Origin: Minisyncoccota bacterium
GTDB lineage: Bacteria > Patescibacteriota > Minisyncoccia > Phycocordibacterales > UBA6065
Assembly: GCA_036400935.1 (NCBI GenBank)
Contig: DASWWW010000002.1
Coordinates: 1-61,938 of the forward strand
DNA length: 61,938 bases
Reading direction: 5' to 3'
The notes beneath the pieces were generated by a model. The model worked only from the letters and a program-made list of their open reading frames with translations, searched no databases and was not told where the DNA came from. Of the stretch, positions 40,213 to 42,313 are shown piece by piece. The position numbers and the translations under genes were made by a program. The number at the start of each line of letters is the position of its first letter. Position 1 is the stretch's first letter.

Positions 40213-41547
40213 TTATTCCTCCTTGGTGAGGCGGTTGTCGATGCGGTTGATGTCTCGCGGGAATGCCGTGGCTTCCTTCACGTTTGCGATCTCGAGCATG
40301 CGGGCCGTGAATCGCTCGAGGCCGGTCGAGCATCCTCCGTGCGGAGGCATGCCGTACTTGAAGGCCTGAAGGTAGAATGAGAACTTTTCCGGGTCCATGC
40401 CGCGCTCCTTGATGCGCTCGACGAGCGAGTCGTAGCTGTGGATTCGCTGCGCTCCGCTGTTTATCTCAAGTCCGCGGAACAAGAGGTCAAAGCCTCGCGA
40501 CTGCGGCGCCTCCGAAGGCTCCTCATAGGTATAGAATGCGCGCTTCTTTGTCGGGAACTTCGTAATGAATACGAAGTCTGAGCCGAGATTCTTCTTTGCG
40601 TACTCGCAGATCTGCCTCTCGTCCTCAGGGGCCATGTCGTTCGTGTCCTCGATCGTGCGGTTGTACTCCTTTGCGACGAGATCCTGCGCCTCCTTCAGGG
40701 TAAAGATCGGGAATTTCTCAGGAGTGAGAGGGGCTGTCGTGCCGAATTTCTTGAATATGTCCTCGTGCTTCGAGGCTTCGCGGACGACGTCCTTGATGGT
40801 CGTCTCGAGCTCCTTCATGACCTCGAACTCGTTGTTGATGAAGCCCATCTCGAAGTCCATTTGGACGATCTCGGAGAGGTGCCTAGTCGTGGCGCTCTTC
40901 TCGGCGCGGAAGACCTTTGCGATCGTAAAGGCCCGCTCCTGCGCGCCCACCATGATCTGCTTGTAGAACTGCGGGCTCGTGGCGAGGTAGGCGTTCTTGT
41001 CGTTGAAGTACTCTACCTTGAATACCGCCGCGCCTCCCTCCGCGTCCCCTCCTACGAGGGCTGGAGACATGAATTCGGTGAACCCACGGGCCCGCAGCGA
41101 CGCTCGGTATGCTTCAAGTATGACCGACTGCATCTTGAACAATGCGCGGCTCTTATCGCTTCGCAATGTGTAAGGAAGATAGTCGAGGTTGGTGTCGAGA
41201 TTTACCTCGGTTCCCAATTCGAACGGGGTCTCCTTTGCCTCTGAAAGGATGTCGATCGAGAGGATCTCGAGCTCTATCGCTCCGTTCTGCTTGTCCTTCT
41301 GGACGTTTCGCTCAGGGCGGGCGTTTACCTTGCCCTTAACCGTTACGACCCACTCGGCGCGCAGCTTTGTACCCACGGCGTGTGCCTCCTTTGCGTTTGG
41401 CAGGATGACTCCCTGGACGTATCCCGTCATGTCGCGGAAATCGAAGAATATGAGCTTGCCCTGGTCGCGGCGCACGCTCACCCAGCCCGAGATGCTAACT
41501 TCTTGCCCTACTTTGGATGTAAGATCCTTTATGTATGTTCGTTCCAT
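40213..41547 (-). CDS. aspS: Aspartyl-tRNA synthetase, short archaeal/eukaryal-type class IIb
   Basis: OB-fold N-terminus (VSISGWV...RRDQGKLIFFDFRD), motif 2 FRAEKSATTRHLSEIVQMDFE, C-terminal GLERFTARML...FPRDINR. About 444 aa from the ATG at 41547. Confidence 0.85.
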   Translation of the reverse strand: MERTYIKDLTSKVGQEVSISGWVSVRRDQGKLIFFDFRDMTGYVQGVILPNAKEAHAVGTKLRAEWVVTVKGKVNARPERNVQKDKQNGAIELEILSIDILSEAKETPFELGTEVNLDTNLDYLPYTLRSDKSRALFKMQSVILEAYRASLRARGFTEFMSPALVGGDAEGGAAVFKVEYFNDKNAYLATSPQFYKQIMVGAQERAFTIAKVFRAEKSATTRHLSEIVQMDFEMGFINNEFEVMKELETTIKDVVREASKHEDIFKKFGTTAPLTPEKFPIFTLKEAQDLVAKEYNRTIEDTNDMAPEDERQICEYAKKNLGSDFVFITKFPTKKRAFYTYEEPSEAPQSRGFDLLFRGLEINSGAQRIHSYDSLVERIKERGMDPEKFSFYLQAFKYGMPPHGGCSTGLERFTARMLEIANVKEATAFPRDINRIDNRLTKEE

Positions 41548-41583: not shown

Positions 41584-41735
41584 CAAAGAAAAGCGCCCCT
41601 CAAAGTCCAGTTTCCTAGGCTTTCAGGGGCGATTTTTGTCGCGGTGCCACCCTGTCTTATAACTCGTTTGCCGTAACGGCGGCTGCCGGAGGCCTTCCTC
41701 GCCCTCGCCGGTTGTCAGCCGGGTCATCGGATAGC
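41584..41735 (-). promoter_or_regulatory. T-box riboswitch leader (transcription attenuation) controlling aspS
   Basis: The minus strand carries AGGGUGGCACCGCG (rc of 41640-41653). The antiterminator (aggg/ccct and gcg/cgc around a UGGCACC bulge) shares cgcccct with the terminator cgcccctgaaag...ctttgaggggcg followed by cuuuucuuu. Upstream there is a GAUGA/GA K-turn-like motif and the hairpin ccgg-CUGACAA-ccgg (41708-41722) with GAC in its loop. Confidence 0.8.
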
Positions 41736-41738
41736 AAT

Positions 41739-41767
41739 AATCTACAGGAAAATCGGGGTTTGGGCAA
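41739..41767 (-). promoter_or_regulatory. Candidate promoter of the aspS T-box leader (TTGCCC-17 nt-TAGATT)
   Basis: -35 at 41767-41762 and -10 at 41744-41739, with a 17-nt spacer. Confidence 0.45.
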
Positions 41768-41770
41768 ATA

Positions 41771-41793
41771 AAAAACAGAGCCGTAAGGCTCTG
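41771..41793 (-). terminator. Intrinsic terminator of the upstream hypothetical gene
   Basis: The minus strand reads cagagcc-ttac-ggctctg followed by tttttt. Confidence 0.7.
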
Positions 41794-41794
41794 C

Positions 41795-42313
41795 TCAGAT
41801 GTCTGCGCCCGCTATCCACCAGCGCCGGACAATGCGTGAACCGAGAAAGGCCTGTACGTCGTCCTGATTCGACATCCAGTGACTCTGTTCGGCTAGCTCT
41901 TTGTTCACTCTCGAGGTACGCTCGATTCGATCGAAGATGATGCCAGAGGCGTTCTGAAAGTCGCGGTAGGTCTCCGTCTGGAGGATGAACAGCTTCCAGA
42001 TCTCGTCGATTTGCGGAGCGGGCGTGACAAACCTCCCTGCCGGCTTGATAAGCGACAGCCAGAGGAATGTGATGACTTGTCGGAAGCCTTCTCGCGCATC
42101 GGCCTCGCTGATTCTGAACTCGGCTGTGATAATCTCGATAAGGTCGGCTGTCTCCAGCCGCTGGGCTATCGATTGCAGCCGCTTGAGGAGTTCAAGCTGA
42201 GGCTTATTCGGCTTGACCTGATGACCCAGGCCGGCCGGGATCTGTACGGCTGATGAGGATACGCGCGCTAGGCCCGCATCGCCCACTTCGTAGGGATGTA
42301 ACTCTTTTGCCAT
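41795..42313 (-). CDS. Hypothetical protein (172 aa)
   Basis: Clean ORF with its own terminator. PQIDEIWKLFILQTETYRDF weakly recalls the VD.VWH.H.L.T..Y motif of glycine-rich-domain proteins; not confident. Confidence 0.55.
   Translation of the reverse strand: MAKELHPYEVGDAGLARVSSSAVQIPAGLGHQVKPNKPQLELLKRLQSIAQRLETADLIEIITAEFRISEADAREGFRQVITFLWLSLIKPAGRFVTPAPQIDEIWKLFILQTETYRDFQNASGIIFDRIERTSRVNKELAEQSHWMSNQDDVQAFLGSRIVRRWWIAGADI

Follow-up and report, generated by a model that had tools for sequence, protein, structure and literature searches.

The window analysed here is a 61,938-nucleotide (nt) stretch, positions 1 to 61,938 of contig DASWWW010000002.1, from the assembly GCA_036400935.1 of a Minisyncoccota bacterium (Patescibacteriota). 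On its minus strand lies aspS, the gene for an archaeal-type aspartyl-transfer RNA (tRNA) synthetase (AspRS), which is preceded by a structured leader (minus strand 41731-41584, with the aspS ATG at 41547). Very probably, this leader is a T-box riboswitch that senses uncharged tRNA-Asp and regulates aspS through transcription attenuation. An initial annotation, made from the sequence alone, had proposed that an archaeal-type aspS in a reduced genome is preceded by a compact T-box leader. The proposal was borne out in that the enzyme scores above the NF003483 cut-off, the genome measures 0.84 Mb (836,744 bases in 5 contigs, 54% G+C, 96% complete) and the Rfam T-box model RF00230 aligns to the leader from end to end. 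All of the elements listed at that time are present on the minus strand.

Architecture of the aspS leader

A 250-nt gap between the intrinsic terminator of the upstream gene and the aspS ATG holds a promoter candidate and the whole leader (Table 1). Because the upstream terminator isolates it, the leader constitutes its own transcription unit. The previously proposed promoter sequence is indeed there, and the pattern TTGCCC-17-TAnnnT recurs at an unchanged position in two relatives of the same genus (TTGCCC-17-TAATCT in L027 and TTGCCC-17-TACAGT in L028), but it agrees with the consensus at only 8 of 12 positions, and a promoter/terminator scan of the window called neither this promoter nor the T-box terminator. 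Transcription would start at about 41732-41735, directly 5' of the kink-turn (K-turn). The sole promoter-like site called by the scan, TTGTCA-18-AATAAT on the plus strand at 41712-41741, is the reverse complement of the specifier loop and probably arose by chance.

The 5' part of the leader is an ultrashort Stem I. The K-turn at its base, as judged from sequence and C-stem covariation, would comprise a UCC/GGG C-stem, a GAU bulge, tandem G.A/A.G pairs at 41725-24 and 41706-05, and a C.C mismatch. A terminal loop of 7 nt presents the Asp codon GAC. The initial annotation had placed the specifier in such a loop without a distal Stem I platform, and both points hold, since 74 Stem I positions of RF00230 are deleted and the loop triplet tracks the synthetase in more than 80 leaders. 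The distance between the K-turn and the T-box, given earlier as about 95 nt, is actually 78-91 nt.

Two small hairpins noticed before are both present, but the more fitting interpretation is that one is a vestigial Stem II and the other helix IIB of a Stem IIA/B pseudoknot. The upper helix and S-turn of Stem II (AGUAGA/GAAA in relatives) are deleted in the window copy; the long-form relative L025 has GAGGAAAGAAAUGGC...GCCAGAGUAGACUCCUC as its Stem II, and the same-genus L032 has GAGG-AAAG-CCUC. The F-box CCGUUA sits within the pseudoknot, where RF00230 aligns CGG......CCGUUA to its IIA element. No Stem III hairpin occurs in the 15 nt between the pseudoknot and antiterminator helix A1. A RRRxG-Stem III-AA motif has been described for T-boxes (PMC7583486), and the strap occupying this place, AAACGAGUUAUAAGA, retains the purine flanks, with AAACG fitting RRRxG and followed by AA. 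Short-form relatives have AAAGUUAUAAA(A/C)C at the strap position.

The T-box bulge UGGCACC separates helices A1 and A2 of the antiterminator. Folding of both conformers, as had been suggested, gave -10.2 kcal/mol for the antiterminator alone and -24.5 kcal/mol for the terminator, and the two are mutually exclusive, with 41624-41631 common to both. Because the terminator is the more stable of the two, the default state would be "off", as in T-box logic. The terminator had been described as a 12-bp helix; a mutually exclusive hairpin followed by a U tract is indeed found, but its stem consists of 7 bp, one G.G mismatch and 4 bp, with a further 4 bp as an extension. Compared with its shuffles, the leader folds more stably (z = -2.6).

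Table 1. Features of the aspS leader and its surroundings in the window
Feature	Position	Strand	Description	Basis
Intrinsic terminator of the upstream gene	41773..41796	-		Promoter/terminator scan
Candidate sigma-70-type promoter	41739..41767	-	-35 TTGCCC 41767-41762, 17-nt spacer, -10 TAGATT 41744-41739	Sequence
Ultrashort Stem I	41702..41731	-		RF00230 alignment; covariation in 22 leaders; RNAalifold on 11 short forms
Putative K-turn	41731-41724 / 41706-41702	-	UCC-GAU-GA opposite GA-GGG	Sequence
Stem I helix	41722-19 / 41711-08	-	CCGG/CCGG, 4 bp; specifier hairpin CCGG-CUGACAA-CCGG 41722-41708	
Terminal 7-nt loop	41718-41712	-	CUGACAA, caps the 4-bp Stem I helix	
Specifier	41714..41716	-	GAC (Asp), loop positions 3-5, then purines A41713 and A41712	
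Vestigial Stem II	41689..41700	-	GAGG-AAGG-CCUC, 4 bp	Comparison with long-form relatives and L032
Stem IIA/B H-type pseudoknot	41670..41688	-	CGG-CA-GCCG-CCG-UUA-CGGC; S1 CGG/CCG (41688-86 / 41679-77), L1 CA, S2 GCCG/CGGC (41683-80 / 41673-70), L3 UUA	RF00230 alignment; topology of relatives
Purine-rich strap replacing Stem III	41655..41669	-	AAACGAGUUAUAAGA	Rfam alignment, which deletes the 7-bp Stem III
T-box sequence	41653-41640	-	AGGGUGGCACCGCG	Sequence
Antiterminator (discriminator core)	41624..41654	-	A1 CAGGG/CCCUG, A2 GCGA/UCGC, A2 loop CAAAAA	
T-box bulge	41649-41643	-	UGGCACC, 7 nt, between helices A1 and A2	
Intrinsic terminator hairpin	41631-41594	-	5' arm UCGC-CCCUG = 3' strands of A2 and A1	Minimum free energy fold
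Terminator U tract	41593-41584	-	CUUUUCUUUG, ends 37 nt before the aspS ATG	
aspS	40213..41547	-	444 amino acids, archaeal-type Asp-tRNA(Asn) ligase	NF003483, 455 bits (cut-off 353)

Detection by covariance models

At gathering thresholds, no Rfam family was reached anywhere in the window. With permissive thresholds, RF00230, the model named in the initial annotation for this check, aligned all of its 219 positions to the leader with an E-value of 1e-5 when the region was searched and 6e-6 over all 836,744 bases of the genome, but the score of 32.4 bits lies far below the gathering score of 93. In this alignment, 74 Stem I positions are reduced to 5 nt and 19 Stem II positions to 4 nt, and Stem III is deleted. 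Matches of the same kind, below threshold at 24-49 bits, were found in 30 of 61 related genomes, and a match above the cut-off in 0 of the 61. Among the 31 loci examined (30 from relatives and the window's own), 21 precede AspRS-type genes. Rfam-based annotation leaves such leaders unmarked.

Conservation and covariation across the phylum

We aligned 22 AspRS-type leaders with MAFFT, which is blind to structure. Compensatory changes were found in all four Stem I pairs and in the C-stem of the K-turn (CG 16, GC 5). Helices A1 and A2, the conservation of which had been named as a check on the T-box proposal, are 100% paired in the 22 leaders, again with compensatory changes. Overall, 88.6% of the cells are paired compared with 29-52% in slid controls, 12 pairs show double changes, and the covariation score was reached by 0 of 500 shuffles. 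The register of Stem II is inconsistent in this alignment (52.6% paired), and we claim no Stem II covariation from it. When 11 short forms were given to RNAalifold in an unfitted alignment, its prediction was limited to the K-turn stem, the A1-bulge-A2 element and the Stem I hairpin that carries the 7-nt loop.

The covariance model R1, built from the 22-leader alignment, scores the aspS leader at 81 bits. Within the order, R1 matches were obtained in 83 of 301 genomes (58 of 190 genera), and in a phylum-wide sample the figures were 98 of 401 genomes and 82 of 320 genera. In an alignment of 100 R1 matches, which is fitted to the model and misaligns the thrS leaders (these were checked separately), the K-turn, a 3-5-bp helix and a terminal loop of 5-8 nt recur. 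A terminator overlapping the antiterminator is present in 88 of 105 related leaders.

In about 85 leaders, the loop triplet tracks the downstream synthetase, the family of which was confirmed separately, and UGGN tracks the discriminator class, with C for Asp/Asn/Ser, U for Ile and A for Thr. AspRS leaders carry GAC (42), AAC (23) or GAU (1) together with UGGC or, in a few, UGGU. IleRS leaders have AUC (7) with UGGU, the SerRS leader has AGC (1) with UGGC, and all 8 ThrRS leaders have ACC, within CUACCAA, with UGGA. The AspRS leaders with UGGU in place of UGGC (L120, L142, L145, L147, L155, L157, L159 and L166) imply that tRNA-Asp or tRNA-Asn has A73 in the organisms concerned, unless the pairing is mismatched.

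The IIA/B pseudoknot was found in 35 of 75 linkers, whereas shuffled linkers gave a mean of 6.0 and a maximum of 12. Its topology is kept while the sequences vary, both in S1 (CAG/CUG, CGU/ACG) and in S2 (CUGCU/AGCAG, UCGCA/UGCGA, GUCGU/ACGAC and others).

Some related loci depart from the common arrangement. L190 (G075:C1:605163-605425) shows two overlapping R1 matches in a 263-nt alignment before one AspRS gene and may be a tandem T-box. In L178 (G184:C2), the leader loop GAUGAUAA, perhaps presenting GAU, is followed by a 163-amino-acid open reading frame and then by a bacterial-type AspRS about 590 nt downstream. A different shared 5' module, GAUUUCUGCG(A/U)(U/A)AGUGGAAAUCCGG...CCUCCGUAA(C/U)CAU(A/G)GGA, was found on T-box discriminators at L004, L008, L012, L013, L015, L019, L188, L189, L192, L193, L195, L197, L200 and L202; its specifier is possibly UGG (Trp). 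T-boxes with the GAUUUCUGCG module precede non-synthetase genes, namely Leu/Glu-dehydrogenase-like, anthranilate-synthase-like and low-molecular-weight-phosphatase-like genes.

Cognate tRNAs and a second leader before thrS

ARAGORN found no tRNA genes within the window; those considered here come from the assembly as a whole. Both tRNA-Asp(GUC) and tRNA-Asn(GUU) are encoded, and each has G73, which answers the comparison that the initial annotation had called for. As it had stated, the variable base of UGGC fits the discriminator, the UGGC of the leader being complementary to the G73-CCA end of tRNA-Asp.

The survey for other synthetase leaders in this genome was productive as well. R1 found a second leader before thrS at C2:154662-154758, outside the window (locus L002, G000 contig C2:154640-154810 on the plus strand, about 92.7 kb past the window end). 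It consists of the hairpin CCUUGG-CUACCAA-CCAGGG, in which ACC is a Thr codon, the T-box AGGUGGAACCGCG and a terminator followed by CUUUUCUUU. Its UGGA fits U73 of tRNA-Thr(GGU) of the same genome. The aspS leader with GAC and UGGC and the thrS leader with CUACCAA and UGGA thus fit their respective tRNAs in the anticodon as well as in the discriminator. The thrS leader appears to be without the 3' GA of the K-turn; all 8 thrS leaders found have the loop CUACCAA and the 5' sequence AGAU(U/C)G.

Loop length and loss of the S-turn

The majority of relatives have a 6-nt loop (CUGACA) and a full Stem II with the AGUAGA S-turn. A 7-nt loop, mostly CUGACAA, occurs in 13 leaders, namely the window leader, its congener L032 and eleven others, and 12 of the 13 lack the S-turn. 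Among AspRS leaders, the S-turn is present in 40 of 47 with six-nt loops versus 1 of 13 with seven-nt loops (Fisher's exact test, 4e-7, with kinship ignored). These thirteen forms are spread over the GTDB families f1, f6, f30, f56, f69 and f101 and over two enzyme types. Only the window leader and L032 keep the pseudoknot without the S-turn, and neither is present in L026, L027, L028 and L156, in which the stretch that begins with the K-turn and ends with A1 is 82-88 nt long. In form, the loop C-U-NNN-A-A resembles an anticodon loop, and its U2 and A6 are complementary to A37 and U33 of tRNA-Asp and tRNA-Thr.

The AspRS enzyme behind the leader

The nearest AspRS orthologues come from Paceibacteria/Parcubacteria metagenome-assembled genomes of Patescibacteria. 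Since gatB (488 bits) was found in the genome and asnS was not found above the cut-off, the AspRS must be non-discriminating. Among the 80 closest archaeal-type AspRS orthologues (L034-L112 set, 54-73% identity), 77 have no UGGNACC within 330 nt upstream, and it is found only in L033, L098 and L102. The leader thus does not simply travel with the archaeal-type enzyme, and T-box control of this enzyme type is patchy across Paceibacteria.

Comparison with loci L025, L006, L032 and L028 gives the window AspRS a chimeric appearance. Over residues 1-105, the N-terminal anticodon-binding domain, it shares 67-74% identity with the same-genus bacterial-type AspRS (GAD-less, about 465 amino acids), and its catalytic core shares about 30% identity with that bacterial type and 55-58% with archaeal-type orthologues. 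Within this one genus, homologous leaders precede three AspRS enzyme types. These comparisons suggest that the catalytic body of the AspRS may have been replaced behind a retained leader and N-domain.

Discussion

The sequence elements of the leader, its alternative folds, their covariation, the match of codon to gene and of UGGN to discriminator and the spread of the family were all observed here, and tRNA binding, sensing of charging and read-through are what we infer. Transcription would start a few bases ahead of the K-turn, and the nascent 4-bp hairpin would present the Asp codon in its 7-nt loop, C-U-GAC-A-A, in the fashion of an anticodon loop, where it would pair with the GUC of tRNA-Asp. 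With no distal Stem I platform the tRNA elbow would not be held, and with no Stem II S-turn the codon-anticodon helix would remain unclamped. The IIA/B pseudoknot and the purine-rich strap would link this contact to the discriminator. If the tRNA is uncharged, its G73-C-C-A end would pair with UGGC in the bulge and stabilise the weak antiterminator (-10 kcal/mol), so that the polymerase reads into aspS. With a charged tRNA, or with none at all, the 3' strands of A2 and A1 would form the stronger terminator (-24.5 kcal/mol), and transcription would stop at the U tract.

Several points weigh against this reading. The candidate promoter is weak, the A2 base pair beside the bulge is G-C and not the G.U wobble described as a steric sensor, and the RF00230 match is below threshold. 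The elbow-binding distal Stem I, missing here, is described as generally required in transcriptional T-boxes; the Stem II S-turn, missing as well, is described as needed for tRNA binding when Stem I is truncated; and Stem III, which is also missing, is called indispensable for the discriminator (PMC7583486). The loss of platform, S-turn and Stem III could mean that the leader is a decaying relic, or that it depends on a helper (a K-turn-binding protein of the L7Ae type or another factor), or that it is a constitutive partial terminator that sets the aspS level. Calorimetry found barely detectable tRNA binding by a truncated Stem I without Stem II (PMC7583486), and the 77 of 80 orthologues without a T-box motif indicate that the gene can do without one. 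We nevertheless regard this explanation as unlikely, as the parts still present show precise conservation and covariation in families throughout the order and the phylum, and the specifier and UGGN stay matched to the gene. Moreover, short forms without the S-turn occur in at least five GTDB families (f1, f30, f56, f69 and f101) and with two enzyme types, a spread that suggests a maintained function rather than decay. The GAC:GUC helix has two G-C pairs, and Stem II has been argued to be dispensable for strong codons, as in glyQS (PMC7583486).

The identity of the ligand deserves separate consideration, because the switch could read tRNA-Asn in addition to or instead of tRNA-Asp, through the overlapping AAC in GACAAC or through a G.U wobble with U36 of GUU, in which case a single leader would report on the two tRNAs that the non-discriminating AspRS charges. 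The genome is compatible with such dual reading: since gatB and a gene for tRNA-Asn are present and no asnS was found, both tRNAs must be charged by this enzyme, and both have G73, so that UGGC fits either. In addition, 23 related AspRS leaders carry AAC, even within the genus (L006, L014, L022), which indicates that tRNA-Asn is a used ligand. These Asn-reading relatives, however, carry AAC at loop positions 3-5, the register of GAC here. We rejected the overlapping AAC, pointed out in the initial annotation, as an Asn specifier: its final C is part of the first helix pair (C41711-G41719), and the base after CUGACAA is not conserved, being C in the window and U or G in other leaders with 7-nt loops (L027, L028, L032 and L150), and the overlap is probably coincidental. 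A G.U wobble at an unclamped GAC would be pure conjecture. Dual reading in this leader accordingly seems improbable to us; the fact that leaders of a single genus differ in having GAC or AAC is consistent with a sensor that one transition re-aims between the two substrates of a non-discriminating enzyme.

Action on translation by sequestration of the Shine-Dalgarno sequence has to be weighed since every described T-box with an ultrashort Stem I is translational (PMC7583486). In this leader, however, the alternative helix takes the form of a GC-rich hairpin with CUUUUCUUU behind it, ends 37 nt before the ATG and stays clear of the start region, and the layout of hairpin plus U tract is shared by 88 of 105 relatives, which makes a translational switch highly improbable. 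An ordinary terminator after a short upstream transcript that happened to contain UGGCACC would be in keeping with the unreached Rfam gathering score. The full-length RF00230 alignment with E = 6e-6 genome-wide, the 81 bits to R1, and the conservation and covariation across relatives (R1 in 83/301 and 98/401 genomes) all speak against it, and given the comparative data such a chance resemblance is very unlikely, the least probable of the explanations considered.

The leader has features of more than one T-box class. On its sequence, it would belong to the T-box functional family, as it lies upstream of a synthetase and has the UGGNACC bulge, mutually exclusive helices, and UGGN and specifier matches. 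Architecturally, it is neither a canonical class I T-box nor a member of the actinobacterial ultrashort class. With class I transcriptional T-boxes (RF00230; Bacillus subtilis tyrS) it shares the GA/K-turn motif, the F-box CCGUUA, the T-box AGGGUGGNACCGCG, an A1-bulge-A2 antiterminator competing with a terminator, a specifier that obeys the "C rule" and has a purine after it, and a synthetase gene downstream. Unlike these, it lacks the internal Specifier Loop with S-turn, the AG bulge and the distal loop (74 positions replaced by 5 nt), its Stem II has 4 bp, it has no Stem III, and its A2 base pair is G-C rather than G.U. The glyQS T-box resembles it in doing without Stem II and in pairing a GC-rich codon (GGC in glyQS, GAC here) with the anticodon, features on which the dispensability argument of the review (PMC7583486) rests, but glyQS keeps a long Stem I with an elbow platform and Stem III, neither of which is present here.

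The ultrashort-Stem-I ileS T-boxes of Actinobacteria were reportedly treated by Sherwood, Grundy and Henkin in 2015, and our comparison with them was made through a review. This actinobacterial ileS class, with structures from Mycobacterium tuberculosis and Nocardia farcinica (PMC7583486), contains the closest known relatives. In both, the K-turn leads directly into a very short Stem I without the interdigitated T-loop platform, a codon near the 5' end is followed by a purine, a IIA/B pseudoknot is present, and the bulge reads NCCA; the AGUAGA S-turn of Stem II is also found in long-form relatives of the window leader. The placement of the specifier in a terminal loop, which the initial annotation regarded as unusual, belongs to the architecture described for these T-boxes (PMC7583486). 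They differ in acting by Shine-Dalgarno sequestration on ileS, whereas the window leader has an intrinsic terminator, precedes aspS (thrS, ileS or serS in relatives) and belongs to Patescibacteria. Furthermore, the S-turn is essential in the actinobacterial class, a truncated Stem I barely binds tRNA without Stem II (PMC7583486), and the window copy has neither the S-turn nor Stem III. What is unusual is the coupling of an ultrashort Stem I to a terminator, together with the loss of the S-turn and Stem III.

In TBDB, the class II model was searched in Actinobacteria only, and we found no paper in the searchable literature joining T-box riboswitches with the Candidate Phyla Radiation or Patescibacteria. 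Papers by Saad from 2012 and 2013, going by their titles, reportedly concern T-box control of the indirect Asn-tRNA pathway by tRNA-Asn. They would set a precedent that the 23 AspRS leaders of relatives with an AAC specifier parallel. Those systems are long canonical leaders of Firmicutes; the specifier in the window is GAC, and the adjacent AAC is not conserved.

The variation among relatives leads us to a more tentative proposal, to which we give somewhat less than even credence, that Patescibacteria hold a reduction series of terminator-coupled T-boxes in which the window copy is an intermediate, and that the 7-nt loop mimics an anticodon stem-loop and may kiss the tRNA. Elbow platform, S-turn and Stem III are gone from the window copy, which keeps the IIA/B pseudoknot, and the relatives of 82-88 nt are without the pseudoknot too. 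In this series, lengthening of the specifier loop from 6 to 7 nt (C-U-NNN-A-A) would coincide exactly with loss of the S-turn. The contact between loop and tRNA may then resemble that between two anticodons. If this is true and the RNAs work unaided, co-transcriptional capture of tRNA and sensing of its charging would need far fewer parts than current models hold.

According to those models, transcriptional T-boxes depend on a long Stem I whose platform captures the tRNA elbow rapidly (2020 review, PMC7583486). The window leader and its short relatives have an intrinsic terminator and yet lack the platform, the S-turn and Stem III, and the family is conserved across a phylum of ultra-small bacteria. 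At about 85-110 nt, these leaders would provide a natural minimal tRNA sensor for structural and synthetic-biology work. The alternation of GAC and AAC suggests that one base change re-aims the sensor between the two tRNA substrates of a non-discriminating AspRS. For the organisms themselves, the finding would mean that genomes of about 0.8 Mb with few regulators still couple the expression of synthetases to the charging of their tRNAs.

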